From: Mustelus asterias
Taxonomy: Eukaryota
Reading direction: 5' to 3'
Length of the DNA: 64,000 nt
Assembly: GCF_964213995.1 (NCBI RefSeq)
Contig: NW_027590160.1
Coordinates: 992,001-1,056,000 of the forward strand
Shown here: positions 426 to 60,580 of the stretch, piece after piece
How the letters are laid out: each line of letters opens with the position of its first letter
How positions within the stretch are numbered: position 1 is the stretch's first letter
Notes under the pieces: generated by a model
What the model saw: only the letters and a program-made list of their open reading frames with translations
Told to the model about the DNA's origin: nothing
The model's database searches: none
Made by a program: the position numbers and the translations under genes

Positions 426-578
426 TGGTTTGAGAGAGAGAGAAACCTGGGCCAACCTTTCCAGAGTCTGCAGCCTCCCTGGATTCACTTCCTTTCCCTT
501 CAGTTGCTGCAAGTCCCCAATTTCCCCCAGAATGAGAAAATAAATGGAAAGGGGGAGAAAAGAAAGTGTTTTACTCAC

Positions 579-780
579 AGATGTTGGCGACAGGGGGAAG
601 TTTGAGTCTGTCTGAAGATCAATCTTCATTCACACAAAGCCCACGCTCTGATTGGCTGGAAGACCAGAGTCCTTCCGGTCCTCCAACTCTTCCCATTGGT
701 CAACACCTCAGCATGAAGATCAGAGGGTGGGTTCTCCCCTGCACATGCACAGCTTCCCCTCTCCCTCGCACACTATTCTG
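579..780 (-). promoter_or_regulatory. Putative promoter and first exon of a leftward ZNF gene; donor GTGAGT at 578 (empty Tx1 target site)
   Basis: Exon/intron sequence paralogous to 51250-51350 and 59850-59957; CCAAT boxes (gattgg ~650, attgg ~695). Confidence 0.6.
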
Positions 781-15514: not shown

Positions 15515-17192
15515 CTATCCAGCCTCTCCTTATAATTCACACCAAGTCCTGGTAGCATCCTTGTAAAACTTCTCTGCACACTTTCTAGTTTAATATTATC
15601 CTTCCTATAATAGGGTGACCAGAACTGTACACAGTATTCCAAATGTGGTCTTCCCAATGTCTTGTACAACTTCAGCAAATTGTGCCAACTTCTGCATTCA
15701 ATGTTCTGACCAATGAAACCAAGCATGCCAAATGCTTTCTTCACCACTCTGTCCATCTGTGACTCTACTTTCAAGGAGTTATGAACTTGTACCCCTAGGT
15801 CTCTTTGTTCTATAACTCTCCTGAGCTGAGTAAGTCCTGCCCTGGTTCGATCTACCAAGATGCATCACCTTGCATTTATCCAAATTAAACTCCACCTGCT
15901 ATTCGTCAGCCCCCTGGTCCAATTGATCAAGATCCCGTTGCAATTGGAGATGACTCTTCACTGTCCACTATGCCACCAATCTTAGTGTCATCTGCAAACT
16001 TACTAATCCCGCTGCCTATATTCTCATCCAAATCATTAATATAAATGACAAATAACAGTGGACCCAGCACCGATCCCTGAGGCACACCGCTGGTTACAGG
16101 CCTCCAGTTTGAAAAACAATTCACTACAACCATCAGAAGCCAATTTTGTATCCATTTAGATATCTCGCCCTGGATCCTGTGAGATTTAACCTTGTGTTTC
16201 CCCCTCCTTTTTGGGGAGCTGCCCCTTTTACTTTGTCCTGATTTAATCTGAGTTTGTTTACTTGGTTTGGTTTGACCTAAAAAAAAACGACCTAAAAAAA
16301 AACAACCTACCATGCGGTACCTTGTCGAAGGCCTTGCTAAAGTCCATGTAGACAACATCAACTGCACCCCCCTCATCTACTTTCTTGGTTACCCCTTCAA
16401 AAAACTCAGTCAAGTTTGTGAGACATGATTTTCCACTCACAAAGCTATGTTGACTGTCCCTAATCAGTCCTTGCATCTCTAAATGACTAGATCAAAATAC
16501 CTTCCAACAATTTACCCACCACAGATGTGAGGCTCACTGGCCTGTCGTTCCCAGGCTTTTCCCTGCAGCCCTTTTTAAACAAAGGCACAACATTTGCCAA
16601 TCTTCAGGCACCTCACCCGTGACTATCGATGATTCAAATATCTCGGCTAGGGGAACTGCAATTTCCTCCCTAGCCTCGCACAATGTCCTGGGATACACTT
16701 CAGGTCCTGGGGATTTATCTACCTTGATGCACTTTAAGACTTCCAGCACCACCTTCTCTGTAATATGTACGCTCCTCAAGACATCACTATTTATTTCCCC
16801 AAGTTCCATGCTTTTCTCAACAGTAAGTACTGATGAGAAATATTCGTATTCATTCACCCATCTCTTGTGGATCCTCACATAGGTGACCTTGTTGATCCTT
16901 AAGAGGCCCTACTCTCTTCCTTGTTACTCTTTTGCCCTTTATGTATTTGTAAAAGCTTATTGGATTCTCCTTTGCCTTATCTGCCAAACCAATCTCGTGT
17001 CCCCTTTTTGCCCTCCTGATTTCTCTCAACTCTACTCCTACACCCCCTATACGCCAAGGGATTCACTTGATCCCAGCTCCCTATGCATGTCATGTGCCTC
17101 TTTTTTCTTCTTGACCAGGGCCTCAATATCCCGAGTCCTCCAGGGTTCCCGACTTCTGCCAGCCTTGCCCTTCACTCTAAGAGGAATGTGTT
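15515..17192 (-). mobile_element. CR1 LINE ORF2 fragment, frameshifted
   Basis: [28 protein letters not shown] motifs. Confidence 0.9.
16192..16302 (+). mobile_element. Short Tx1-family 3'UTR fragment inserted in CR1
   Basis: Reverse complement of 21170-21250 and 59960-60040; A-tail duplicated (gacctaaaaaaaaac twice). Confidence 0.75.
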
Positions 17193-20640: not shown

Positions 20641-21137
20641 CGAGGGACAGGGCACTGAGGAGGGCAGTGCCCCAGTCAGGAGAGAGGGAGTGCCGGTGTT
20701 GGGGGCAGCAGCAGTGGGGAGGGGGACTTTACTCTTCCAGCCCTCTTGGGTGCAAACTAAGTCCAGGGTATCTTCACCCCCCCCCCCCCTTCCCCCACTG
20801 CAGATGGAAAACAGTCTAAATTTTCTTCCCCCCCCCCCCCCCCCCCCCTCCTCCCTTTCAGGCACTGACCTTCTGATGGGGGCATCAGCGCCACTCAGTC
20901 CCCTGATGTTGATATGAGTCGGCCGTGCAGTCTTCCCTCCCGTAGGTGGAAAAAAGTAAAGAAAGAGTGTGTCTCCGTGTCCTCTTTCCCCCTCTCCCTC
21001 CAGGGAGAGAGCACCCTCCAGCGGACCACAGGCAGGCGATAGCTCACCTTCCTCCCCCTTCCCTCCTCCCTTCCTTGCAGGAAGCCAACAATTTGGCAGA
21101 AACGAAAGAAAACAGGCGTCTCCAGCAAGCAAGCTCG
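20641..21137 (-). mobile_element. Tx1-clade element copy B, 5'UTR only
   Basis: Diverged homolog of the 5'UTR at 29990-30490; starts 19 nt downstream of the ZNF-type donor at 21156. Confidence 0.65.
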
Positions 21138-22022
21138 AAGAAAGTGTTTTACTCACAGATGTTGCCCTCTTAAGGTCAAACCAAATAAACAAACTCCGGT
21201 TAAGTCAGGACAAAGTAAAAGGGGCAGCTCCCCAAAAGGAGGGGGAACAGCCCGAACAGAAATCAAAGTACAAAGGAAACTTAAAGATCAAATTAAAATG
21301 TGATTATTTGGGTCAATAACGCACCCCAACCTCTGCGGTGCTCAATGGGCGCGGAAGGTGTCAACCGCGCCCGTGGACACCGCATGCTCCCTCTCCAGGG
21401 ACACCTGGCCGCGAACGTAGCTGTGGTAGAGGGGAAGACAGTCAGGATGGACGGCCCCCTCGATCGCCAGCTGCCTGGACCAGTAAATGGCGCGTTTCGC
21501 CAGGCCCAGGAGCAGGTTCACGAGGAGGTCGCCATCCCGACCCTCCCCTCTCCGCACCAGGTGTCCGTAGATCAGGAGCGTGGGACTGAAGTGCAGACAA
21601 AACATCAATAAAAGGTTCTTCAGGAAAACATAAAGGGAGTGCAGCCTAAGACACTCAACATAGACATGGTCCACGGACTCCACAAGGCCACAGAAAGGGC
21701 AGTCTTTGGAGCCCGTGAACCAGTGAATCCTACGGTTGTGCGGAACTGCTGCATGCATCACCCTCCACCCCAGGTCCCTGACGTAATTGGGGGAGATCCC
21801 TCCGTAGAGGGACCTCCACTGGGGACCTCCGCTGACCATGGCAACAAGGCCCGCCAAGGTGTATCCGGGCGACAGGCGAGGAGGCAGTAGTGGAAGGTGT
21901 GCAGCAGCAGCCCGCACAGGAAACGCCTCCGCGCGGTAGAAAAAGGCACGGAGGACATTTCTGCGAGGCGGCTCAGGCTGTGGGGCACCTCACCCGGGGA
22001 GGGGGCTGAGGCTTTGGGCCAA

Positions 22023-25000
22023 TGTGGAATTCCGTCTGAATGGCTATCTAGATAAGTCTTTAAACGTTCCCAGTGTGTCCACCTCCACCACCTTGCCTGG
22101 CAGTGCATTCCAGGCCCCCACCACCCTCTGTGTAAAATATGTCCTTCTGATATCTGTGTTAAACCTCCCCCCCTTCACCTTGAACCTATGACCCCTCGTG
22201 AACGTCACCACCGACCTGGGGAAAAGTTTCCCACCGTTCACCCTATCTATGCCTTTCAAAATTTTATACACCTCTAAGTCTCCCCACATCCTCCGTCTTT
22301 CCAGGGAGAACAACCCCAGTTTACCCAATCTCTCCTCATAACTAAGCCGCTCCATCCCAGGCAACATCCTGGTAATCCTCCTCTGCACTCTCTCCAAAGC
22401 CTCCACGTCCTTCTGGTAGTGTGGCGACCAGAACTGGACGCAGTATTCCAAATGCAGCCGAACCAATGTTCTATACATCTGCAACATCAGACCCCAACTT
22501 TTATACTCTATGCCCCGTCCTATAAAGGCAAGCATGCCGTATGCTGCCTTCACCACCTGTGACGTCACCTTCAAGGATCTGTGGACTTGCACACCCAGGT
22601 CCCTCTGCATATCTACACCTTTATGGTTCTGCCATTTATCGTATAGCTCCTCCCTACATTATTTCTACCAAAATGCATCACTTCGCATTCATCAGGATTG
22701 AACTCCATCTGCCATTTCTTTGCCCAAATTTCCAGCCTATCTATATCCTTCTGTAGCCTCTGACAATGCTCCTCACTATCTGCAAGTCCTGCCAATTTTG
22801 TGTCATCCGCAAACTCACTGATCACCCCAGTTGCACCTTCTTCCAGATCGTTTATATAAATCACAAACAGCAGAGGTCCCAATACAGAGCCCTGCGGAAC
22901 ACCACTAGTCACAGGCCTCCAGCCGGAAAAAGACCCTTCCACTACCACCCTGTCTTCTGTGACCAAGCCAGTTCTCCACCCATCTAGCCACCTCCCCCTT
23001 TATCCCATGAGATCCAATCTTTTTCACCAGCCTACCATGAGGGACTTTGTCAAACGCTTTACTGAAGTCCATATAGACGACATCCACGGCCCTTCCCTCG
23101 TCAACCATTCCAGTCACTTCTTCAACTTCCCCACCACGGATGTCAAGCTCACCGGCCTATAATTACCCGGGTTAAATAACAGGACCACATTAGCTATCCT
23201 CTGGGACCTCACCTGTGTCCAGTGACGAGACAAAGATTTGTGTCAGAGGCCCAGCGATTTCATCTCTCGTCTCCCTGAGCAGCCTTGGATAGATTCCATC
23301 AGGCCCTGGGGATTTGTCAGTCTTTATATTCTCTAACAAACCTAACACTTCCTCCCTTGTAATGGAGATTTTCTCCAACGGTTCAACACTCCCCTCCGAG
23401 ACACTCCCAGTCAACACATCCCTCTCCTTTGTGAATACCGACGCAAAGTATTCATTTCGGATCTCCCCGGCTTCTTTGGGCTCCAAGCATAATTCCCCAC
23501 TTTTGTCCCTGAGGTCCAATTTTTTTTTCCCCTGACAACCCTTTTGTTCCTAACGTATGAATAAAATGCCTTGGGATTCTCCTTAATCCTGTCTGCCAAG
23601 GACATTTCGTGACCCCTTTTTGCCCTTCTAATTCCCTGTTTGAGTTCATTCCTACTTTCTTAGGAGTAGGAATGAAGTCTCTGTCACTGCAACCACATCC
23701 AAATTCCTCGTGAGCATTAAGGCCCTAAGTTTGTCTGTCTTACCTGCTACGCTCCTTGCATTGAAGTATAAGCTCCTCCAGAGCTCCCTCCGTTTTTAGC
23801 TGCCTGGACCTAACATATGCCTCTTTTCTTGTTGACCAGTCCCTCAATTTCCCTGGTTATCCACAGTTCTTGAATCCTGTCCTTTTTTACGGGCACATGC
23901 CTGTCCTGTAGCCCTAACAACTGTTCCTTAAAAGACTCCCACTTGCCAGATGTGGATTTACCCTCAAACAGCCTCTCTCAATCAACAGCTGCCAATTTCT
24001 GCCTAATCCCACTAAAGTTAGCCTTCCCCCAATCCAACACCTGACCCTTGGGACACCACTCATCCTTTTCCATCGCTATCCTAAAGCTAACAATTGTGGT
24101 CACTATTTGTCACATGTTCCCCTACCGAAACTTTGAAGACCTGACCGGGCTCATTCCCCAGTACCAGGTCCAGTATAGCCCCCTCTCTAGTCGGGCTATC
24201 TACATATTGTTCCAAAGAACTCTCCTGTACACATTTTACAAATTCCTCCCCATTGAGTCCCTGCTCTCAGCGATTTCCAGTCTATACCAGGGAAATTGAA
24301 GTCTCCCACTACAACATTTTTCCTGCACCTACCCAGTATCTCCTGACATATCCGTTCTTCCACTTCCCTTGGGCTGTTGGGGGGGCCTGTAGTATACCCC
24401 CAACATAGTGACTGCACCCTTCCTGTTTCTAAGCTCCACCCAGAGTGACTTGTTACACAACCCCTCTGAATTGTCCTCCCTCTGCACTGCTGTAATATGC
24501 TCTCCAACTAATACTGCTACTCCCCCACCTCTTTTGGCCCCTCCTCTGTCTCACCTAAAACACTTGTACCCTGGAATGTTCAGCTGCCAGTCCTGTCCCT
24601 CTTTCAACCAAGTCTCTGTCACTGCAACCACATCCAAATTCCTCGTGAGCATTAAGGCCCTAAGTTTGTCTGTCTTACCTGCTACGCTCCTTGCATTGAA
24701 GTATAAGCACTCCAGACCTCCAGGCACAGTGAGGTCATCCTCCCCCAGAATGCACCACTTCTTTGCCAGCCTTGTCCCAGCCCCAAGCTCGTCCCCAGCC
24801 TCTACACTTGTAGACCTAATATTGTGATCCCCACCCCCCTGCCATACCAGTTTAAACCCCCCCCCCCCCGAACTGCACTAGCAAAACTCCCAGCCAGGAT
24901 ATTCGTGCCCTTCCAACTTAGTTGTGACCCGTCCTTCTTGTACAGGTGCCATCCTCTCCTGAAAACTTCCCATTGATCTAGGAAAATGAAGCCCTCCCTC

Positions 25001-26280
25001 CTGGACCAGTCCTTTAGCCAAAGATTCAATTGTACTAACTCCCTATTCTTAGCCTCACTGGCACGAGGCATTGGGAGCAGCCCAGAGATGGCCACCCTGG
25101 AGGCCCTACTTTTTAGTCTATTTCCCAACTCCCTGAATTGCTCTCGTAGGATCCCCCTGCTCTTCCTATCTACGTCAGTTGCACCAATGTGTACAATGAC
25201 ATCTGTTTCTTTATCTTCCCCTTTTTAAGATGCCTCCTATCCGCTTGGAGACATCCAGTACCCCAGCACCAGGTAGGCAGACTACCATCCTGGAGTCCCG
25301 TTCGCACCCACAGAATCGCCTGTCTGTGCCTCTAACCGACGCATCCCCCACCACTATTTCTCTCCTAATCCCTCTCTTTCCTTTCTGGGCCACAGAGCCT
25401 GACTTTGTGCCAGTGACCTGGTCACTGTGGCTTACCCCTGGAGAGTCATCCTCTTCCACACTATCCAAAACAATATACTTGTTTTGGAGTGGGACAACCA
25501 CGGGTGACCCCTCCACTAATTGCTCACTCCCCTCCCCTCTCACACCTATCGCCGAGCCCTTCCTATTATGAGAGACAGCCACTGGAGTACTCTCTGGTAC
25601 ACTACCCTTCTGACCTTTACTCCTCCTAACTGTGACCCACGTGTCTTCCTCCCGTTGCCCCGGTGTAACTAGTTCCCTATAACTCGTGTCAATTATTCTC
25701 TCATTCTCCCTGACTAGACCAAGGTCAGCAATCTGCAGCTCCAGTTCCCTGACACGGAACCTCAGGAGCTGCAGTTCCACGCACCTGGCACAAATGTGAA
25801 CCTCTGGGAGGCTAGGTGTTTCCAGGAACTCCCACATCCCACACCGGAAGCACCGAACTGGCCTATCGCTCATAGCTACCCTTATCCGATACAGGTTTGG
25901 ATAAAAATAACTTGCCCTGCCTCGCCCTTACCGCCTAAGCCCTCTGAGCCAAAGCCCTGACAGCTCTCACTCTGCTTCCCACAAGCCCTGTGAGCCAAAG
26001 CCCTGACAGCTCCCACTCTGCTTCACTTGCTCCACTGCCCGCTCGTAAGTGCTGCCTGCCTTTTAAAGCCAGCAACAAACCTCCCCAGGCCTACTTCCGG
26101 TTTTGAAAAAAAAACCTCCGATTTTACGCACAAAATTAACTGAAAAAAAAAATAAATCTCCACTAAAAAACACTCTCTTACCCTCAGTTCTCTCTGTGGA
26201 ACAGAGGCTGAAACCTCCAAGGCAATCCCTTTTTAAAGCCAGCAACAAACCTCCCCAGGCCGAGTAACCTGGGTTACATC
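22023..26280 (-). mobile_element. CR1 LINE, near full length but degraded, nested in Tx1 copy A
   Basis: ORF1 25211-25873 (C..C zinc finger, leucine zipper, SGNH esterase-like IVVGD); EN and RT fragments; same family as 52530-56650. Confidence 0.9.
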
Positions 26281-26299
26281 CCATCCGGACCTGGCGACT

Positions 26300-28440
26300 T
26301 ATCTATCTTGATGCCATTCAAAGATTCCAGCACAACCTCTTAAAGTCCACATACTCAATCTTTTCAGTCCACCACAAGCCCACAGTACATCCACCCATGT
26401 CCTTCTCTGTGAAAACCGAGGCAAAATACTCATTGAGCACCTCTGCCATTTCTACTGGTTCTGTACAGATTTTCCCACCTTCACCTTTTATAGGCCCTAT
26501 TCCGTCAGGTCTCATCCTTTTACTCTTCACATATTTATAGAATGCCTTGGGGTTCTCCTTAATCCTACCTGCCAGGGCCTTCTCGTGACCCATTCTGGCT
26601 CTCCTAATTTCCTCCTTTAGTCCCTTCCAACAAGCCGTATACTCTTCTAAATCCCTATCTTTGCCAAGCTCTGAGTCTTTTGTACGCTTTCCTTTTCTTC
26701 TTGACTAGGTCCCGCACAGCTTTCGTGCACCACGGTTCCTTTAACTGACCAACACCTCCCTGTCTGCTCGGAACGTTGTTCTGTAGAACTCTAGACAGGC
26801 ATTCCTTGAAAAACTGCCACCTCTCTTCAGTACACTTCCCTGAGAATACCTCCTTCCAATTTACTCCTCTAATTTGCTGCCTGCTGCCTTCATATTTCCC
26901 CTTACTCCATATAAACACTTTCCTGGCTTGCCTGATCCTCTCTTTTTTTTTCTAATGCAAGCCTAAAGGAGAGAGAGTTATGATCGCTATCCCCAAGATG
27001 CTCTCCCACTGAGAGATCTGACACCTGTCCAGGTTCATTGGTCAGTATCAGATCAAGTACAGCCTCTCCTCTTGTAGGCTTGTCCACATGCTGTGTCAGG
27101 AAACCCTCCTGAACACACCTAATGAACTCTTCCCCATCCAATCCCCTTACCCTCGGGATATTCCAATCTATGTTTGGGAAATTAAAGTCTCCCATCTCAA
27201 CAACTCTGCTATTACTGCATCTCTCCAGGATCTGTTACCCTATCTGCTCCTCCACCTCCCTGTTACTATTAGGCGGCCTATAGAAAACTCCCAGCAAAGT
27301 GACCGGCCCCTTTGCACTCTGTACCTCCACCCACAGAGACTCGGTGGACAATCCCTTCACAGCATACACCTTCTCTACAGCTGTGACACTATCCCTGATC
27401 AGCAGTGCCACTCCACCCCCTCTCTTGCCTCCCCTGTCCTTCCTGAAACATCTGAATCCCGGCACCTGGAGTATCCAGTCCTGTCCCTGAGACATCCGAG
27501 TCTCCGTAATGGCCACCACATCATACTTCCAGGCATCAATCCACACTCTAAGCTCATCCCCTTTATTCACTATACTCCTGGCATTAAAGTAAACAAATCT
27601 CAATCCTTTGGTCTGAGCTCTCCCCTTCTCTATTCCCTGTCCATTCACCCTCTTGCACTGCCTATAACCCTTCTGTTTGCGAGCTAACTTCCTCACTCTG
27701 ATCCCCTCCCCCAACCTATCGAGTTTAAACTCTCCCCAGTAGCCTTAGCCAACCTTCCTGCCAGGATATTGGTCCCCCTGGGATTCAAGTGCCACCCGTT
27801 TTTTGTGTACAGGTCACACCTGCCCCTGAAGAGGTCCCAATGGTCCAGGAACCTGACTCCCTACCCCCTGCACCAGTCCCTCAGCCACACATTCATCCTC
27901 CACCTCACTCCATTCCTGTCCTCACCTTCCCATGGCACAGGCAGCAATCCTGAGATTACTACCTTTGCTTTCCTCCTCCTCAGCTGTCTCCCTAATTCCC
28001 TATACTCTCTTTTCATGACCCCTTCCCCCTTCCTTCCCACATCAGCGGTACCAATATGTACCGCTACCTCCGGCTCCTCTCCCTCCCCCCTCAGGATTTC
28101 TGGGACTCGCCCAGCAACATCCTGAATCCCAGCCCCAGGGAGGCAGACCACCATGCGAGACTCCCACCTGCCTCCGCAAAATCGCCTGTCCGTCCCCCTG
28201 ACTGCCGAGTCCCCGATTAATACTGCCTTCCCCTCTTTAGCCCTCTGAGTTACAGGGCCGGACTCCTCCCCGGAGACACGGCCACTGCTGCTTCCCCCAG
28301 GCGGGCTGTCCCCCCCCCCCCCCCCCCCAACAGTACTCAGGCAGGAGTACTTGTTGTGTAGGGGCACATCCACCGGGGTGCTCTCAATCACCCGAGCTTT
28401 ACCCTTCCTGGCCGTCACCCACTTGGCCTCCTCCTGTGGA
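26300..28440 (-). mobile_element. Second CR1 LINE fragment (ORF1 esterase plus endonuclease)
   Basis: AVLIGDSAVRG..VVCLPGA; YFNARSI..ITET; GDFNFP..SDHN. Confidence 0.85.
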
Positions 28441-28746
28441 CCACCTGATGATAGGGACACGAACATTGGGGTGTTGCCCCAGTCCCCCGACAGACTGAAG
28501 AAGAACTCCGGGTTGTAACCGGCCGGGTGGAACGGAACCGTGGGGGCCCCGCTGCCACCCGGCCCCGGAGACTCCTCGCCGGGGGACTGAGGCAGCACAC
28601 GCTTTGACTTACAGGGTGCCTTGCCCCCTTTTTTCTGGGGACAAGGCACAAAGACAGGTGGGGGCACGGCAGGAGATGACTCACAAGGGGGGAGGGGCAC
28701 GCAGACCTCGAACTCTACGGTGCCCGAGGGGCCCCGCCTCTTTTTG

Positions 28747-29859
28747 TTAACCTGCTCTCGGGCAAGTGAGGCCCCTCTTCGCCTTGCCGCACCCCTCCTG
28801 ACCCCCCATCACATCCCCCCGAGGTGGTGGCGTCACCAGTGTTGCCGGCTCGGGGTCGCTAACCCCCCCATGCTCGGGCCCATGATCCTGGGCATCCGCA
28901 GCGCCGGACCCAGCACTAGGCCCCGGAGAGCCCACGGGCCCGGCAGATGGTGGTGGTGGGGGGGGGGGTGCAGGGTGCAGGTGGAGACTGAGGTGGTCCC
29001 CGAGCCGGCTGCCGGGGTGGTCGGGGTGTCTTTCCTGGGGGCCGGGGTTCTGGTACCCCCCTTCTTTTTTGTAGGTCCCTTCTGGGTCTTCTGGCCACAC
29101 GGAGGCTCCGCTCCCCCCCCCGCTGGCAGCTGAGGTGACAGCTGCTGCCGGCGTGGCCTCCCCTCGCGGGGGGGCAGATGGTACTCGCTTGGGGGGAGAG
29201 GGGGCTGCGGTGCCAGCTGCGGCCACCTTGGGTTGGCGGTCGGCGGCCTTGGAGACGGGGCAGTTTTTCCGCACGTGCCCCGCCTCCTTACAGGCATGGC
29301 ACCGCACACCGTCCGCGGACCAAAAGACCCGGTAAGTGGTCCCCTCGTGGGGGACATTGAACCATCCCTCCAGTTCCTCCTCCCGGGCCAGGCGGACAAA
29401 AACCTGGCGCCGGAAGGAGTATATATGGCGGAGGAAGGGGTCCCGAAGGCCGAGCGGGATCGGCTGCACCCCGGACCTGACCTCCCCCAGTAGATGGAGG
29501 TGGGGGAGGAGGAGCTCACTCGGTAGGAAGGGCGGGACGTTCGAGATGATGATCCCGCCCACCGTGAGCTCCCTCTCCAGGGCGAGGTGGACCGCCCGCT
29601 CGGCCTTCAAAAAGAATACGGCCCGGCCGTACATCTTAGAGGCCGCGACAATGGCTGAGGGGCCGACAACCCCAGCCATTGCCTTGACGCAGGCCTCGAT
29701 AGACATGTCGGGGTGGGCGTAGCACTTCACCCCGAGCTGTCTGGTTATCAATGAAAATGGCGGCAGGGCCTTGGGAGCGGCGGGGGCTCTGGCAGCTGCC
29801 ACGCCCGCATAGGTGGGCCGAGAAGGCCCTGCCACCGGCGACGCTGTTGATGTCGCCAT
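28747..29859 (-). pseudogene. Tx1 ORF1 (gag-like, CCHC knuckle), frameshifted C-terminus
   Basis: AIVAASKMYGRAVFFL, IIISNVPPFL, CHACKEAGHVRKNC. Confidence 0.8.
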
Positions 29860-30624
29860 CGTATCAAGGGAAGTGCTACACCCACCCCGAGACTGCCCAG
29901 ATGTACGGCAGGGCGTATGTGAGGAGGGGAAAATAAGGGTAGGTGGGGAGGGGTGTCGGTGCTCTTTCCCCGGAGTGAGAGGGGAGAGGAGGTCGGAGGA
30001 GTAGGAGGGAGACGAGGAACAAGGCCGGTGCCCCAGTCAGGAGGGAAAAAGGGGAGGGGGTGCCAATCTTGGGGGCAGCAGCAGTTGGTGGGGGACTTAG
30101 GAAAGGTCTTCACCCCCCCCCACTGCAGATGGAGAAGAGACAGTCCAAACACCTTCGCCCCCCCCTCCCCTCCAGTCACTCCCTGTCCTCTCTTCCTCCC
30201 TCCCCCCGGGGAGAGCGCACCCTCCAGAGGCCGGACGGCAGGCAGGCAGTCCAGACGGCAGGCAGGCAAAACGGCAAGACGGCAAGCAGGCAGGCAGTCC
30301 AGACGGCAGGCAGGCAGGCCGGGGGGCAGGCCGGGCGGCAGTCCGGGTGGCAGGCCAGGCAGTCCGGGCGGCAAGGCAGGCAGCAGCTCGCCTCCCTCCT
30401 TCCTTTCCCCTTCCCTCCCTCCTTCCTCCCCGCAGGGAGCCAAGAACAAGCAAGCAAAAACAAAACAAACAGAACTGGTCGTCTTCCCAAACAAACTGAA
30501 AAATAAAGTGCGTTACTCACAACAAAACAAAAAGAAAGCAAGCCCACAGTTTCCGCCTGGTTCTGACCCGGGGTTTTCCGCGTCTCCAGCGAACGTGAAT
30601 CCACTTCACTACAGAAACAAAATT

Positions 30625-30810
30625 AGATGTTGCCCAGAGGAGGAAGTGTCACTCTGAAGCTCATTGGCCAACTTCTGCATTGTGACATCACAAACCTGCC
30701 TGAATCAGCCAATCGGAATCACCCTGCTCCGCGGTGACGTCTCCGGGTTCCAGTGAGCAGGCCCTGGCGCGTGGACCCGGGAGCCCCGCCCCCACCCATT
30801 GTTCCCCTCT
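30625..30810 (-). promoter_or_regulatory. ZNF-type promoter and first exon upstream of Tx1 copy A
   Basis: 30720-30806 paralogous to 51690-51760; 30625-30663 resembles exon 51300-51345; CCAAT, CRE-like and GC boxes. Confidence 0.65.
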
Positions 30811-45982: not shown

Positions 45983-46825
45983 TCACTCGTGAACTCGCTG
46001 GTGTCTCAACAGCTCGGATGAATCTCTGAATCTCTTCTCACACACAGAGCAGGTGAACGGTTTCTCTCCAGTGTGAACTCGCTGGTGCCTCCGCAGGTGG
46101 GATGACTGAGTGAATCCCTTCCCACAATGAGAGCAGGTGAATGGTCTCTCCCCAGTGTGAACTCGCTGGTGCCTCCGCAGGTGGGATGAACAAGTGAATC
46201 CCTCCCCACACACGGAGCAGGTGAATGGCCTCTCCCCAGTGTGAATTCGCTGGTGTGTCCACAGGGTGTATAATCGAGTGAATCCCTCCCCACACTGAGA
46301 GCAGGTGAATGGCCTCTCACCAGTGTGGACTCGCTGGTGTGTCCGCAGGCTGGATGAATCACTGAATCCCTCCCCACACTGAGAGCAGGTGAAGGGTCTC
46401 TCCCCAGTGTGAACTCGCTGGTGTCTGCACATGTACGATAACCGAGTGAATCCCTTCCCACACTGAGAGCAGGTGAATGGTCTCTCTCCAGTGTGAACTC
46501 GCTGGTGAGTGCGCAGGGTGGATGACTGAGCGAATCCCTCCCCACACTGAGAGCAGGTGAACGGCCTCTCCCCAGTGTGAACTCGCTGGTGTGTCCGCAG
46601 AGTGTTTAACAGACTGAATTCCTTCTCACACTGAGAGCAGGTGAACGGTCTCTCTCCAGTGTGAACTCGCTGGTGTTTCTGCAAGGTGGCTAACAGAGCG
46701 AATCCCTTCCCACACTGAGAGCAGGTGAACGGCCTCTCCCCAGTGTGACTGCGCCGATGAGCTTCCAGCTCTGATGGGGCTCTGTATCTCTTCCCACAAT
46801 CCGCACATTTCCATGGTTTCTCCAT
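45983..46825 (-). CDS. C2H2 zinc-finger protein, ~280 aa, 10 intact fingers
   Basis: MEKPWKC start as in paralogs; uninterrupted TGERPF-linked array; acceptor ttttacag at ~47171. Confidence 0.9.
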
Positions 46826-48103
46826 GGTACAGGTGTCCTTTCCTCTCTCTTGGGTGGACAATGAGTTGAAGCCTCGTCCACACACAGGACACTGGTACAG
46901 TCTTTCCTCACTGTGAATGGTGTGATATTTATTCAGGCTGTGTAACTAGTTAAAGCTCTTTAGTCAGTGCATTGGAACACTCTCACTCGACAGTGTGTTG
47001 GTGCTTTTCCAGTCACACTGATGTTTGAATTTTTTTTCAAATCAACAGACTGGACAATCATTTCTCCTTCTAAATTCAAAGGCCGATGATATTCAGCTCC
47101 CAAGGAATATGACTGTCAGATCTAGACGTGACATTTGAGATTTCAGCCTGTGGTTCCTCTTTCAATATCCTGTAAAATGAGTTAGAAATAGAAGTAGAAA
47201 TTCAGAACAGACAATTCTAGTTTCTATGGAACATTCTTTCCGTTCTCATTCCCCAAAAGCTGTAAATCTCCATTCCACACACTCTCCCTCCATTCTCACT
47301 CTGCTGTATCTAATATTCACCCTCCCAATTCTCCTGAAGGTGCTGATTGAGGCTGATTGACAGATCCATGCTCACTGCTTCCTGTCCACCACATACAAAT
47401 CATAAGAAACAGGAGCTGCAGTTGGCCATTCAGCCCATCGAACTGCCTCAACCATTCATTGAGAATTGGCTGGTCTACCTCACACTATTTCCATAGCGCC
47501 ACTATTTCCCAAACTATCATGGAAGTTAGTAAGATAGAGGGTTATAGGTAAGCCTCGTAGCTAGGGACATGTTCGGTGTAACTTGTGAGCCGAAGGGCCT
47601 GTTTGTGGTGTAGCTTTTCTATGTTCTATGTTCTGTCCCCCATGTTGCTCAATGCCTCAAAAGTTACCAATCTCTCTCTTGAAAATATTTGATGACTGAG
47701 GCTCCACAGTCCTCTGGAGTGCAGAATTCAAAAACTTCACCACATCCTTGAGTGAGGAAATCCCTCATCATCTTAACTTTCACTCCATTTTCCCACTTGT
47801 TCGCCATAACGCTTGACTCCTTTATCAATGTAATATCCACCTAACTCATCCTCGAATATCTTCAATAACCCTCAGCTTCCACTGATCCCTGTGGAAGAAA
47901 AATCCAAAGACTAATGATTCTAATAAGCAAGAGATGAATAACTGGAAATATATAATATATATACTATTCAGGCTGATTGACAGATCCATGCTCACTGCTT
48001 CCTGTCCTGGATGTGGAGACGCCGGCGTTGGACTCGGGTAAACACAGGAAGAAGTCTCACAACACCAGGTTAAAGTCCAACAGGTTTATTTGGCAGCACA
48101 AGA

Positions 48104-48138: not shown

Positions 48139-50677
48139 AGTGGGATTTCAGTTCACAAACAGGACATATAAAGACACAAACTCAATTTACAAAATAATGG
48201 TTGGAATGCGAGTTTTTACAGGTAATCAAGTCTGAAAGGTCCAGACAATGTGAGTGGAGAGACGTTTAAGCACAGGTTAAAGAGATGTGTATTGTCTCCA
48301 GCCAGGACAGTTAGTGAGATTTTGCAAGCCCAGGCAAGTCATGGGGGTTACAAATAGCATGACACGAACCCAAGATCCAAGTTGAGGCCGTCCTCATGTG
48401 TGCGGAACTTGGCTGTCAGTCTCTGCTCAGCGACTCTGCGCTGTCGTGTGTCGTGAAGGCTGCCTTGGAGAACGCTTACCCGAAGATCAGAAGCCGAATG
48501 CCCGTGACCGCTGAAGTGTTCCCAACAGGAAAAGAACACTCTTGTCTGGTGATTGTTGAGCGGTGTTCATTCATCCGCTGTCATAGCGTCTGCATGGTCT
48601 CCCCAATGTACCATGCCTCGGGACATCCTTTCCTGCAGCGTATCAGGTAGACAACGTTGGCCGAGTTGCAAGTGTATGTACCGTGTACCTGGTGGATGGT
48701 GTTCTCACGTGAGATGATAGCATCTGTGTCGATGATCCGGCACGTCTTGCAGAGGTTGCTGTGGCAGGGTTGTGTGGTGTCATGGTCACTGTTCTCCTGA
48801 AGGCTGGGTAGTTTGTTGCAGACAATAGTCTTTTTGAGGTTGTGCGGTTGTTTGAAGCCAAGTAGTGGGGGTGTGGGGATGGCCTTGGCGAGATGTTGGT
48901 CTTCATCAATGACATGTTGAAGGCTCCGGAGAAGATGTCGTAGCTTCTTCGCTCCGGGGAAGTACTGGACAACAAAGGGTACTCTGTCCTCCTGTCCAGT
49001 GTTTGTCTTCTGAGGAGGTCCGTTTTTCGCCGTGGCGCATCGGAACTGTCGATCGATGAGTTGAGCGCCACATCCTGTTCTTATGAGGGCATCTTTCAGC
49101 GTCTGGAGGTGTCTGTTGCGATCCTCCTCATCTGAGCAGATCCTGTGTATACGGAGGGCTTGTCCGTAGGGGATGGCTTCTTTAACGTGTTTAGGGTGGA
49201 AGCTGGAGAAGTGGAGCATCGTGAGATTATCCGTGGGCTTGCGGTACAGTGAGGTGCTGAGGTGACCGTCCTTGATGAAAATGTGTGTGCCCAAGAATGC
49301 AACCGATTCCGGAGAGTAGCCCATGGTGAGTCTGAAGGTGGGATGGAACTTGTTGATGTCATCATATCGTTGTTTCAGTGATTGTTCACCATAAGTCCAA
49401 AGGAAGAAAATGTCATCGATGTATCTAGTGTACAGCTTCGACTGAAGGTCATGTGCAGTGAAGAAGTCTTGTTCGAACCTGTGCATGAAGATGTTGGCAT
49501 ATTGAGGTGTGAATTTGGTCCCCAAGGCTATTCCGTGTGTCTGGATAAAGAACTGGTTGTTGAAGGTGAAGACATTGTGGTCAGGATGAAGTGGATGATT
49601 GTAAAATTGCATCTGGAGATTGGCAGTTGTTGGCGTTGAGTACTGAGGCAGTTGCACCAATGCCATCGTCGTGGGGGATGCTGGTGTAGAGTGCCGAGAC
49701 ATCCATTGTGATGAGGAGTGCTGCTGGTTCAACTGCTCCATGTGTGCTGTTTCTGAAGGAAGTCCGTAGTGTCACGACAGAAGCTGGGGTTCTTTGTACA
49801 ATGGGTTTCAGGATGCCCTCGACGTAGCCGGAGAGTTTCTCGCACAGGGTCCCATTGCCCGATACGATGGGACGGCCAGGTGTGTTTGCCTTGTGTATCT
49901 TCGGGAGGTAGTAGAGATCTCCAACGCGGGGAGTACGTGGGATGAGAGCACGGAGGGTGCTCTGAAGGTCCGGATCAAATGTCTTGATCTGTCTGTTGAG
50001 TTGACGGGTGTGTTCTTTGGTCGGATCTGCAGGTAACTGTCTGTAGTTTTCCTCATTGTTCAGTTGTCAGGACACTTTGCAGTAATTCGTTCTGTTCAGC
50101 ATGATGATTGCCCCTCCTTTGTCTGCTGGTTTGATGACAATGGTGCGCTTGATCTTGAGAGCGCAGATGGTGTTGCGTTGTGCTTGGGTGATGTTCGGGG
50201 CTGTCTTGTGAGTGTGACTGATGAATCTGGCATTGACGCACCTCCTGACGGCTTGGGCATACATGTCAAGTCGAGGGCAGCGGCCTTCCGGAGGAGTCCA
50301 ATTCGACTCTTTCCTCTTCGGTTGCTGTACCGTGGATCTCTCTATCGGCTGTTCCAGTTCATTGACTATCTCATTATGTTCGCTGTTGGCCTCTTGGGGT
50401 TTGTGGAAGAACTCCCGCAGCCTCATTCGCCTGATGAATTCCTCTGTGTCTGCTGCGAGACTGATGGGGTCTATTTTGGTGGTGGGGCAGAAATTGAGAA
50501 CTTCGATTTCATCTGGTTGAAGTGTGTCCGACAAGTTGACAATGGACTTCCCTGCAGTGGTACTGTTTTCTACTGTGGTACCGGGGGAGGCTTGATTGCT
50601 GCTGGTGGTGATGCCGAGTTTCTCAAGTTTCCTGTTCTACCAAATGTGGCATTGTGACGATGGCTTTGTGCTACCAA

Positions 50678-51016
50678 ATCGCTTCTCGGCCTTTTGGCTA
50701 AGATCAAGTGTAGTATGGATCGCCTGCACTTGGTTGGGGTCATTGGGTTACGCTGAGGCTTCATATGTTTCATATGAAGCAATTTTTAAAAGCGGCATCT
50801 CGGCCTTTTGGCTAAGATGCAAATGAGCTCAAGTCTTGGAGGAGGATCCTCCCCCTTCTCCAATCAGCTTGGCTCATGTAGATCGGGCCCAGGACTGGGT
50901 GGTTTTGGTCTCCCGCCCTGTCTTGTCAGCCTGGATCTGAAATGTCTCAACTTGTTGAGACTCTAAATTGGATTTGATTTGATTGAATTGGAAAAGTACA
51001 AAGAAATAAATAAATG
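50678..51016 (+). mobile_element. U2 snRNA-headed SINE-like element (~340 bp)
   Basis: 50678-50716 = U2 nt 1-39; second U2 nt 7-27 copy at 50798-50818; A-rich tail; interrupts Penelope repeat gctacca^aataaacctg. Confidence 0.75.
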
Positions 51017-51299
51017 AATAAACCTGTTGGACTTTAATCTGGTGTTGTGAGACTTCTTCCTGTTGTGGGCACAGAGAGCTGAAAATCTTCAAGCTGACAG
51101 TCACGTTACAGTTTTACATTTGGATATAAATGAGCAGACTGATGGTGTGTGTAATACACTGTATTACCTGGTTACAGATACATAAAGAATGTGAGGAGAA
51201 TCTTTACTTAGGCAGCGAGTGGTGACCCAGAAGTTAAAAATTGAAGCGCAAAATGAGAAAAGAAATGGAAAGGGGGAGAAAAGAAAGTGTTTTACTCAC

Positions 51300-51765
51300 A
51301 GATGTAGGAGACAGGAGGAAGGCTGAGTCTGTCTGAAGCTTAATCTTCATTCAGAGGGAGAGGAGCAGCAGCAACAATGGACGAAGCTCCGCGCGGCCAT
51401 TGACACAAGGCCCGGACTCTGATTGGCTGGAGGACCATCGCCCATCCGGTCCTCCTGGCAACCATTGGTCAATATGCCGCATGTGGACAATGAGGGGGCG
51501 GAACCCGAGCCCGCGTGGGGGTGGGCGGGGCTCTGACCGCCAGCCGCGCTGAGCTGGTGTCCAATCCGCAGTGTGCGGCTTCTGCAACCAGTGATATTGC
51601 TGCCAATGGGACAGTGTGTGCTGGGAACGCCCCTCTGAGTCATTGTGACGGCACAATGGAGCCCTGCCTCAATCACCCAAAAGCAATCACTCTGCTCCGC
51701 GGTGACGTCTCCGGGTTCAGGCGCACGGTCCCGGGAGCCCCGCCCCCACCCATTGTTCCCCAGTC
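51300..51765 (-). promoter_or_regulatory. Promoter and first exon, probably of ZNF 45983-46825; donor GTGAGT at 51299 (empty Tx1 target site)
   Basis: CpG-rich, CCAAT and GC boxes; exon paralogous to 579-629. Confidence 0.65.
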
Positions 51766-56650: not shown

Positions 56651-58172
56651 GAGACAGTAATTCTGTTGAATACGTGCTTTATTGCCCAGGCCTGGTCCAG
56701 GGGCGTCAGAGAATAATTTGGGGAAGCCAAACTATTCTAAATTCCATTGCTTCCAATATTACAATTATACAACTTTCAAAAATCATTTCCCCACCCACTT
56801 TGCTCACCCAGCCAGACATCAACCAATCATTATTCGTCTAGATTATTTACCTTGGCCAATAACATGTCACTCTCTGGCAGCATGAGAATACATAGGTCTA
56901 TAAATTCAAAAGTGCTTTTCCACTGTGTCCGAGCAATTCTTTATCGGGAAACGGTATGCTCTTATTCATTCAATTGTCTGGGAAGCTTGTACTGTCTGGA
57001 GCCAACACTGATGAGTTTTTTTTTGCTTAACTCAGTAGCTGTATTGTTTTCAAAGAATGTGGTTCTTCTTACATAGCTATATACCATCATGCCTTAGAGT
57101 GTCATTAGCCAAGGTGTATGATTTTAATACAGAATATATGTTATCAAAAATACATGTTTAAATTCACTAACAATGGTTATATGTATTTCTATGCAAACAG
57201 TACCTTTGTAACTCCAGGTACTTAGTGATTCTTCTTGAATATATTCACTCTAAATTAACCTATTCTGATATATTAGTCTTTTAGTCCCAGGTTGTCCTGA
57301 ACCCCCTCGAACAATGGACAAGGATGTAAATATCTCCCAGAGAAAGTGATCAACTTATTCATCCCATCGACACATTCCAGACTTTCACTGGAATGAACCA
57401 GGATTCCACATTGATATATTCCATTCAACCTCACCCACAGTGAGCTATTCCAATTTCTTTGTTCTCCAGGACAATATATTCACAATATCTTTAAAACAGA
57501 AATTAAACATTCCCATTTGATTTCAGGTATCAACATATTCTGTTAGTTTGTTCTTTATTGTCAATGTCAGGCTGGGGTTGTTCCCCTTGGAGCAAAGGAG
57601 GTTGAGGGGAGATTTGATAGAGGTGGACAAGATTCTGACAGGTTTAGATAAGGTGGACAAAGAAAAGCTGTTCCCATTAGCTGATGGGACAAGGATGAGG
57701 AGGGACACAGATTTAAGGTTTTGGATCAGAGATGCAGCGGGGGATGTGAGGAAGAAAATTTGATGCAGTGAATGGTAATGATCTGGAACTCGCTGCCTAC
57801 GAGGGAGGAGGAAGTGGAGACAATAAACAATTACAAAGGAAATTGGATGGGCATTGGGGGGTTTCAAACAGAAATAGTGACTATCTCTTAACTTCCTAAC
57901 ACCCTGTCACTCTGTGATCCTTGTGAAATTTGAAACCAGGTATTCGCAACAAGACTCAAAGAGCATCAGCCCACTGGAGGCAAAGCCATGAGACCGACCA
58001 GTCCAGCAGAAAGAAACTCTCCGACCCTCCCCATTGACCAACTGTGAGAATGAACAAAATGTAGTCCTGGGTGTAATTAAGAGCAGAAACAATAACAGCA
58101 GAATCCAAACCCTGGAATCACTCGTGAACTTGGTGGTGTCTCAACAGATGGGATGAAAGACTGAATATCTTC

Positions 58173-58958
58173 TCACACAGAGCAGCTGAACGGTCTCTCC
58201 CCAGTGTAAACTCGCTGGTGTATTCGCAGGTTGGATAACCGAGTGAATCCCTTCCCACACTGAGAGCAGGTGAACGGTTTCTCCCCAATGTGAACTCGCT
58301 GGTGTGTCACCAGGCTGGATGAATCACAGAAACCCTTCCCACACTGAGAGCAGGTGAACGGCCTCTCCCCAGTGTGAACTCGCTGGTGTATCTGCAGGCG
58401 GGAGGACCCAGTGAATCCCTTCCCACATTGAGAGCAGGTGAATGGCCTCTCCCCAGTGTGAACTCGCTGGTGTGTCAGCAGGCTGGATGAATCACAGAAT
58501 CCCTTCCCACACACAGAGCAGGTGAATGGCCTCTCCCCAGTGTGAACTCGCTGGTGTCTCTGCAGGTGGGATGACTGAGTGAATCCCTCCCCACATCGAG
58601 AGCAGGTAAAGGGCCTCTCTCCAGTGTGAACTCGCTGGTGTTTCCGCAGGTCGGAAGACCGAATGAATCCCTTCCCACACTGAGAGCAGGTGAACGGCCT
58701 CTCCCCAGTGTGAATGCGCTCATGGACCAGCAGGTCGGAAGATTGAGTGAATCCCTCCCCACACTGAGAACACGTGAATGGCCTCTCCCCAGTGTGAACT
58801 CGCTGGTGTCTCTGCAGGCTGGATGACTGAGTGAATCCCTTCCCACACTGAGAGCAGATGAACGGCCGCTGCCCAGTGTGGATGAGCCGATGAGCTTCCA
58901 GCTGAAATGGGTATCTGTATCTCTTGCCACAGTCTGCACATTTCCATGGTTTCTCCAT
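58173..58958 (-). CDS. C2H2 zinc-finger protein, 9 fingers (9th has H->Y), 10th finger frameshifted
   Basis: Paralog of 45983-46825; last finger continues out of frame to the ancestral stop near 58119; could be a pseudogene. Confidence 0.75.
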
Positions 58959-59957
58959 GGTGCAGGTGTCCTTGCCTCTCTCTTGGGTGGACAATCAGTT
59001 GAAGCCTCGTCCACACACAACACAGGTACAGTCTCTCCCCGCTGTGAATGGTGTGATATTTATTCAGACTGTGTAACTGGTTAAAGCTCTTTCGTCAGTG
59101 CATTGGAACACTCTCACTCGAGTGTGACAGTGTGTTGATGCTTTTCCAGTCACACTGACATTTCAAATCGACAGACCGGACAATCATTTGTCCTTCTGGA
59201 TTCAAAGTCCGATGATATTCAGTTCCCAAGGAGTATGACTCTGTCAGATCTAGACGTGACGTTTGAGTTTTCAGTCTGTGATTCCTCTTTTAATATCCTG
59301 TAAAATGAGTTTACAAAAGTCATCAGTGTCAGTACAGGATAGAAATTCAGAGCAGACAATTCTAGTTTCTCTGGAACATTCTTTCCTATTTCAGTCCCAA
59401 AAAGCTGTAAATCTCCATCCATATCTATGGATTCTATTTAAAAATGAAAGTGGATGGGCACTTGAAGGAAATAAACTTGCAGGAGAATGGGATATAGAGT
59501 GGGAATGGGACTGGAATGTTATACAGAGAGTCAGCATGGACTCGAGTTACCAAATGGATTCCTTCTGTGCTGTAATGACTTTATGACTGGAAATGTATAA
59601 CATCGCTACAGCTTCATATTACAACGCAAGAGCTGTAAATCTCCATCCCACACACTCTCCCTCCATTCTCACTCTGCTGTATCTAATATTCACCCTCCCA
59701 ATTCTCCTGAAGGTGCTGATTGAGGCTGATTGATAGATCCATGCTCACTGCTTCCTGTCCTGGACAGACAGAGCTGGAAATCTCCATGCAGGCGGCCAGA
59801 CAGATATATGTCTATCTGACTGGACTAACAATGTGTGGAACATACCGACTGGATTCACTTCATTCCCTTCAGTTGCTGCAAGTCCCCAATTTACCCCAGA
59901 ATGAGAAAAGAAATGGAAAGGGGGAGAAAAGAAAGTTTTTACCCACAGATGTTGGCC

Positions 59958-60345
59958 TCTTTTAAGGTCAAACCAAATAAACAAACTCAAGTTAAATCAG
60001 GACAAAGTAAAAGGGGCAGCTCCCCAAAAGGAGGGGGAACAGCCCGAACAAAAATCAAAGTACAAAGGAAACTTAAAAACATCAAATCATAGTGTGATTA
60101 TTCGGGTCGATAACGCACCCCAACCCCTGCGGTGCCCAACGGGGGCAGAAGGCGTCAACCGTGCCTGTAGACACCGCATGTTCCCTCTCCAGGGACACCT
60201 GGCCGCGAACGTAGCCGCAGTAGAGGGGCAGACAGTCAGGATGGACGGCCCCCTCGATCGCCCGCTGCCTGGACCGGTAAATGGCGCGCTTCGCCAGGCC
60301 CAGGAGCAGGTTCACGAGGAGGTCACCATCCCGACCCGCCCCTCT
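59958..60345 (-). mobile_element. Tx1-clade copy C, 3' end
   Basis: DLLVNLLLGLAKRAIY..SLEREHAVSTG and 3'UTR as in copy A; 3' junction 11 nt before the donor at 59946. Confidence 0.85.
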
Positions 60346-60580
60346 CTGCGTGGGTTTCCTCAGGGTGCTCCGGTTTACTCCCACAGTCCAAAGATATGTG
60401 GGTTAGGTTGATTGCTATGCTAAAAAAATTGCCCCTTAGTGTCCTGGGATGCGTAGATTAGAGGGATTAGCGGGTAAAATATGTAGGGCTATGGGGGTAG
60501 GGCCTGGGTGGGATTATGGTCGGTGCAGACTCGATGGGCCGAATGGCCTCTTTCTGTGCTGTAGGGTTTCTATGATTCTA
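60346..60580 (+). mobile_element. HE1-type SINE, 5'-truncated
   Basis: Core and tail. Confidence 0.8.

Follow-up and report, generated by a model that had tools for sequence, protein, structure and literature searches.

Recurrent insertion of a Tx1-clade LINE at two fixed motif positions upstream of sense ZNF exons in Mustelus asterias, with a site probably picked by pairing of a read-through RNA tail

The window analysed here, a stretch of 64,000 nt of contig NW_027590160.1 of the shark Mustelus asterias (assembly GCF_964213995.1), holds six C2H2 zinc-finger (ZNF) arrays, three per strand, together with pieces of a Tx1-type retrotransposon. A search of the 3.68-Gb genome suggests that this long interspersed nuclear element (LINE) inserted repeatedly at two fixed motif positions (sites 1 and 2) upstream of sense ZNF exons, the site probably being picked by pairing of a read-through RNA tail rather than by the endonuclease alone. 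The site-1 target motif, a 21-mer, has 626 exact matches genome-wide and occurs three times in the window, compared with zero occurrences in 100 shuffles of the latter. The target sites, their genes and two short element copies are located as follows:

560..632, minus strand: empty host exon; predicted splice donor at 578
16198..16282, plus strand: short dispersed 3'-end copy of the element, away from the ZNF site
45983..47170, minus strand: ZNF coding exon downstream of the 51281 site
51281..51360, minus strand: empty host exon holding both insertion sites; predicted donor at 51299
58124..59298, minus strand: ZNF coding exon downstream of copy C; predicted acceptor near 59298
59928..59955, minus strand: host site 1 following copy C, with GTGGGT as the predicted donor at 59946
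59956..60349, minus strand: copy C, a 390-bp 3' piece ending in GAGG at site 1; its 5' end adjoins a short interspersed nuclear element (SINE)

The letters quoted for the motif in a first-pass annotation of the window are present at 566–586 (exact) and 51287–51307 (one mismatch). Copy C was likewise confirmed to end before the donor at 59946; it occupies a genuine host site, with a ZNF acceptor 650 bp downstream. Its structure is shared by 5 of 20 compared loci, copy C itself being duplicated.

Positions of motif matches were read from the first 100 of the 626, ordered by contig. This list begins at C12, with clusters on C12, C23 and C71, and no exact motif on contigs C1–C11 is among the matches listed. 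In a survey of 20 motifs (19 hand-picked across the list and the 560 site of the window), the first C2H2 finger downstream is in sense orientation in 18 cases (0.6–7.9 kb away) and antisense in none, with no finger within 9.7 kb in the remaining two; at the 560 site (L260), seven sense fingers begin 2.0 kb downstream, outside the window. CCAAT-like boxes lie upstream of the motif, and all 11 C-type copies sampled independently of the exact motif keep GTGAGT. The sense arrays, the CCAAT-like boxes and the conserved GT fit a non-coding first exon, and the motif-bearing exon is likely to represent the 5' untranslated region (UTR) of ZNF genes. Among the empty copies of a G-type variant, 11 of 13 read GG instead of GT. 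A coding first exon was rejected, since joining the donor at 51299 to the acceptor at 47170 in open frame leads to a stop after 8 codons (read by eye), as was a small nucleolar or small nuclear RNA (snRNA), for which Rfam gave no match at the three window sites. The CpG promoter proposed at first pass proved modest only, the observed/expected CpG ratio upstream of the motif being 0.25–0.77 compared with a window median of 0.38. Target motifs on C71 (e.g., 6454420 and 6455186) also occur as divergent pairs 450–770 bp apart, like bidirectional promoters.

The intact element of about 7.1 kb comprises an open reading frame (ORF) 1 and a 1297-aa endonuclease–reverse transcriptase (RT) ORF2, ends in GAGG without poly(A) and makes duplications of about 14 bp. 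Copy L195 (7.07 kb, intact) served as reference to which copies A, B and C of the window were mapped. ORF2 is intact in L194 and L195, both of the class inserting at site 2, and young intact copies are 99–100 % alike. In L195, ORF2 matches PF03372 (residues 6–227) and PF00078 (residues 512–760) and shares 48 % identity with the Xenopus laevis Tx1L ORF2 (YTX2_XENLA, P14381) over the whole length; the relatives of highest identity are from a ray (70 %) and the horn shark (64 %), over parts. Phylogenetic analysis of the RT (27 rows; of 26 selected proteins, one was left out because of its short coverage, and the CR1 outgroup has a long branch) clusters it with P14381 and turtle and sturgeon relatives at 100/100 support. 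Proposed from the outset, the assignment to the Tx1 clade of retrotransposons without long terminal repeats is thus supported. Behind the host exon, full-length copies start with a tRNA-Val-like head; of ten loci, three yielded an ARAGORN tRNA prediction, which was tRNA-Val in two (L183:2497–2569 and L189:4237–4311). This presumably tRNA-Val-derived head is possibly an RNA polymerase III promoter or the relic of an earlier tRNA-gene target. A Caretta gene model (P0019) fuses a Tx1 RT with KRAB and C2H2 domains, and the turtle relative may also reside within ZNF genes.

Genome-wide, 89 element 3' ends lie exactly at site 1, compared with 0.00008 expected by chance. The insertions adjoin the host exon directly through at least 16 different 5' junctions and span 9 bp to 7.2 kb (duplicates merged; four rows excluded because their nearest exon was that of another gene or element); three further junctions were read by eye (L185, L189 and the L296 group). 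Clean truncated insertions (L061, L067, L072, L169) carry a 14-bp duplication spanning the predicted donor, some site-1 exons were struck twice in series, and some products measure less than 30 bp. Among the first 30 listed motifs 14 are filled, 12 by the Tx1 family and two by a non-coding family. Site 2, some 50 nt further upstream within the exon, is used by a younger class with 69 exact ends. This class forms 7-kb tandem arrays and carries a diverged copy of the host exon at its 5' end; only 39 of its 213 ends are listed before contig C71. Due to strict exact patterns, counts of 3' ends are lower bounds, and so are the on-target shares of about 10 % in the older subfamily (89 of 898 exact 3' ends, the 89 coming from a slightly different pattern) and of 12 % in two younger marker classes (69 exact of 554 ends). 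Among dispersed copies, exact duplications of 11–16 bp were found in 13 of 70 and of at least 14 bp in 12 of 30, the null reaching a maximum of 9 bp. With high confidence, the Tx1 family has inserted recurrently and independently at fixed bases of a ZNF-linked 5' motif. The recognised feature, originally thought to be the splice junction, is not the junction as such, since a second site lies about 50 nt upstream and the duplication extends across the donor.

The non-coding family (1.2–1.9 kb; L197, L198, L199; L331–L360) has 243 exact ends and no similarity to Tx1 sequence, and uses site 1 with a 14-bp duplication. The bases following its dispersed ends are, among 30 cases, CCA in 10 and TCC in 16 (five of these 16 from one tandem array), the latter pointing to a putative second, CCAAT-containing target. 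Within this family, L186 is a short Tx1 copy at an ACA-starting site with a flanking repeat. Tandem arrays are located on C4 (68.68–68.70 Mb), C89 (2.43 Mb) and C19 (82.8 Mb); they are made up of 3' ends of the element, in units of about 680 and 132 bp, and of the non-coding family.

The Tx1-containing region of the window that comprises copies A and B is composed as follows:

20660..21137, minus strand: "copy B", a 5'-UTR fragment of the same Tx1 family, about 0.5 kb, without ORF
21138..21165, minus strand: target-like motif that matches an element-internal copy in the 5' UTR of B, by alignment to full-length elements
21166..22040, minus strand: 3' part of copy A, i.e., ORF2 C-terminus and 3' UTR ending in GAGG; 95 % identity to L195, weak zf-RVT match
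22041..28454, minus strand: nested CR1-type fragments in place of the Tx1 endonuclease and RT; no match to L195, esterase-like ORF1 match
28455..30547, minus strand: 5' part of copy A, i.e., 5' UTR and broken ORF1 (start near 29860); 88 % identity to intact L195
30548..30618, minus strand: head of the 5' UTR of the element, degenerate and tRNA-Val-like; alignable with the L183 head, which ARAGORN calls tRNA-Val
30625..30670, minus strand: terminal part of the host ZNF 5' exon in a G-type variant, preceding copy A; identical sequence found empty in L310 and L292

Copy A (21168–30624), initially described as one 9.5-kb element, thus lacks endonuclease and RT: only positions 23–2377 and 6197–7072 of L195 map to it (5' 2.4 kb and 3' 0.9 kb), separated by 6.4 kb of fragments that are presumably CR1-type by their ORF features. 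Its ORF1 has a weak CCHC knuckle match (PF00098, E 0.0024, 18.3 bits compared with a curated cut-off of 20.8). Copy B does begin 19 nt after the supposed donor at 21156, as had been noted; rather than a diverged element in tandem, it is a 5'-UTR fragment, and the motif preceding it aligns unbroken into the 5' UTR of the full-length elements L183 and L185, 18 of 21 block duplicates reading the element-type TAAC instead of the host-type TAAA. The same B sequence follows the copy A 3' end in 21 of the 30 best genomic matches. All ten fetched downstream stretches of A/B duplicates contain the block at 19.3–16.3 kb of the window and all nine fetched upstream stretches the CR1 interior, indicating that A and B form one old block spread by segmental duplication.

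The 11-mer reported at 30625–30635 and 21157–21167 was confirmed letter for letter. However, the element ends in GAGG at 21166, so that the GG of this supposed 11-bp duplication, whose edge had been placed at the GT donor, is element sequence; clean duplications elsewhere are 14 bp long and span the donor. Moreover, A-block duplicates (71–87 % identity in the Tx1 UTR, 93–98 % in the CR1 interior) carry at least three different 5' heads and two tails (GC or CC), and with heads, promoters and tails varying in this way the 11-mer was dropped as the duplication of a single insertion. An element-borne origin of the exon upstream of copy A was likewise dropped, since the same variant occurs empty. 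Sense orientation to the ZNF gene, claimed for all three copies, holds for copy C only; the arrays downstream of A/B (18.4–19.3, 11–12 and 3.1–4.5 kb) are on the opposite strand, and no sense ZNF array was found after A/B in the window. The recurrent targeting proposed in the first-pass annotation therefore stands genome-wide, but not for copies A and B. Descent from one insertion by duplication and an element-internal motif, either of which had been considered damaging to the proposal, both apply to A/B but not to the Tx1 family with its distinct junctions, while unrelated flanks of most copies apply to the older subfamily (about 90 %), except that these flanks share 3–4 bases. Between A-block duplicates (window 28455–30700 compared with L321–L329), 5' heads and promoters are exchanged within the 5' region of Tx1 and the CR1 interior is kept, which suggests that recombination between element copies may reshuffle ZNF promoters.

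At dispersed sites, the bases directly following GAGG (the tail) track internal markers located 8–20 nt upstream. In one marker class the tail is CCA in 11 of 11 cases, in another it starts with G in 28 and with C in 11 of 39 (Fisher p 2e-5), and in a further one with A in 13, G in 4, T in 2 and C in 1 of 20. TCT tails characterize 21 of 30 ends of the site-2 subfamily and none of 50 others (p 1e-12). The tail counts include a few tandem neighbours and one transduction. The dispersed-site tails of 3–4 bases (CCA, GCA, ACA, TCT) correspond to the flanks of the same subfamilies in ZNF clusters. Visible duplications begin at the first tail base, meaning that the host matched the tail. Two 5'-truncated G-class insertions at the ZNF site (L292 and the L296 group) show the host C in the 5' copy of the duplication, and the 3' copy reads G, which may indicate that the mismatch was tolerated under long pairing and the base of the RNA written; in dispersed G-tail copies with duplication, the host base is G in five of five. 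Polarity of mismatches beyond the first base (L067, L087, L254) was not used, since the 3' copies had been selected by exact pattern. GT is read in all four filled G-type exons and in 2 of 13 empty ones, a hint of more extended pairing. Candidate read-through products exist as DNA: L266 carries the head of the following element and poly(A), and the repeat flanking it begins with A; in L037, at least 159 nt of ZNF intron were carried onto a chromosome without ZNF within 9.4 kb downstream; a duplication around L037 was looked for and not found.

When the endonucleases of 15 TCT-tail copies were compared with those of 9 copies with other tails, none of the 240 residues showed a fixed amino-acid difference, and L189 from site 1 and L195 from site 2 share 98.2 % identity. 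Judged from the tail classes, this argues against the endonuclease alone setting the target; its own share of specificity may be a near-invariant C at +2, present in 127 of 130 dispersed ends.

Taken together, the observations favour, by a modest degree, a mechanism based on the RNA tail. Full-length copies would be co-transcribed from the ZNF promoter or the tRNA-like head and read into the flank, leaving the element RNA to end in target sequence. Many sites would be nicked by an endonuclease of weak specificity that possibly needs C at +2, and priming would succeed where the tail pairs, i.e., over 3–4 bases at dispersed sites and over many more at paralogous ZNF exons. A copy at a new spot would gain a new tail and could found a subfamily with a new target, be it site 2, the element's own head or the non-coding partner element. 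Several points weigh against this mechanism. Exon, donor, co-transcription and RNA tail are all read from DNA; some 90 % of the older subfamily lies off the exact site; and 56 of 70 dispersed copies are without visible duplication. The overwritten base comprises two clean events explicable by later mutation, and a third case (L293 group) is ambiguous since full-length heads may be RNA-derived. Older site-1 copies differ from the site-2 clade by about 19 majority endonuclease differences, bridged only by L189 and L200, copies are mosaic such that an endonuclease may not belong with its tail, and for Tx1L the endonuclease alone is reported to recognise about 10 bp (PMC1919474).

A rival reading is classical Tx1 targeting, in which the endonuclease reads about 10 bp of the exon, subfamilies evolved new specificities and dispersed copies are off-target cuts at partial sites. 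Besides the Tx1L precedent and the statement that the endonuclease mainly sets the target (PMC4494074), it would account for the C at +2, for a weak pyrimidine bias upstream of duplications and for the separate clades of site-2 and old site-1 endonucleases. We nevertheless regard it as unlikely, because no fixed difference separates the tail classes, the endonuclease of L189, a site-1 copy, resembles those of site 2, G was written over a host C and one marker class displays four different tails. The absence of any true targeting, with a microhomology-primed LINE accumulating in open, dispensable ZNF promoters and segmental duplication inflating the count, would agree with the single A/B block, with duplication of copy C and of 44-bp and 274-bp insertions, and with most ends being dispersed. 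Yet it is already contradicted by junction diversity and appears highly improbable: open chromatin does not give one base, while single-base precision is maintained across the distinct junctions, including the products below 30 bp and the serial re-insertions, and a second family uses the same base. Hardly to be expected, finally, is a target that is an old repeat or element-derived sequence carried along with ZNF duplications instead of a working exon. The similar motif within the element's 5' UTR, the GG in most empty G-type copies and an exon status predicted from DNA speak for it; the distribution of the listed exact matches, the predominance of sense C2H2 arrays, the CCAAT-like boxes and the conserved GTGAGT in C-type copies speak against it.

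The intron of the 51281 gene contains two further features, a U2 snRNA-like sequence (50678–50884, plus strand; Rfam 50.9 bits) and an RT fragment (48581–50636, minus strand) with an RVT_1 match that is presumably Penelope-like. A similar U2-headed element, resembling SINEU, is found 19 nt after the donor in L151.

The shark element shares with Tx1L the RT clade, two ORFs, an apurinic/apyrimidinic endonuclease (APE) and a fixed target. Tx1L, however, inserts into the DNA transposon Tx1D (PMC4494074, PMC1919474), whereas the shark element enters a host gene-family motif at two sites and has many dispersed copies. Multicopy targets, tandem insertion around the duplication and non-autonomous partners at the same site are also described for Keno (U2), Kibi/Koshi (microsatellites), crocodilian Tx1-Mar and Tx1-9_AMi with its SINEU partners (PMC4494074). 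By description, to which the comparison is confined, their targets are RNA genes, microsatellites or transposons, none being a protein-coding gene family in the passages of PMC4494074 concerned. That source applies a threshold of more than 20 % of flanks in one target for target-specific Tx1 elements, and further Tx1 targets in its supplementary figures S3–S5 may bear on novelty. An snRNA, 5S, tRNA or microsatellite target of the Keno, Mutsu, Dewa, Kibi or Koshi type was not found here, as Rfam is empty at the three window sites and the target precedes C2H2 exons. For R1Bm, read-through 3' sequence is said to have a role in targeting. Targeting by R2 (28S rDNA) is strengthened by co-transcription with the target (PMC4494074). 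R1Bm and R2 belong to other clades and use one ribosomal DNA (rDNA) site fixed by a specific endonuclease, and a natural target switch with near-unchanged endonuclease was not found for either. Titles and abstracts of the open-access literature revealed no Tx1 element targeting a protein-coding gene family. The ZNF family is likely to represent a new class of Tx1 target.

More tentatively, and with rather less than even expectation, one may speculate that the LINE reprograms its own integration site, the read-through flank acting as RNA guide: a near-unchanged endonuclease would have walked between the ZNF-exon sites, onto the element's own head and into the partner element, and the LINE would live in the promoters of a several-hundred-member ZNF family, occupy as many as about half of these in some clusters and shuffle ZNF promoters and segments by recombination. 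Site-specific LINEs have been described in RNA genes, microsatellites and other transposons; the promoter exon of the protein-coding ZNF family would add a new class of safe harbour, which belongs to a gene family thought to police transposons. Such policing was shown for zebrafish ZNFs (PMC10547256), the main text of which does not contain the words shark, chondrichthyan or cartilaginous. If this is true, a small inserter of APE type whose site is set by a short 3' tail would be of interest to developers of RNA-templated insertion tools. How a site-specific element changes its target is a general question, and the young intact copies with two targets 50 nt apart and near-identical endonucleases allow the contributions of RNA and protein to be tested against each other; the evidence for a target that moves with the RNA tail is the most valuable part of these findings.

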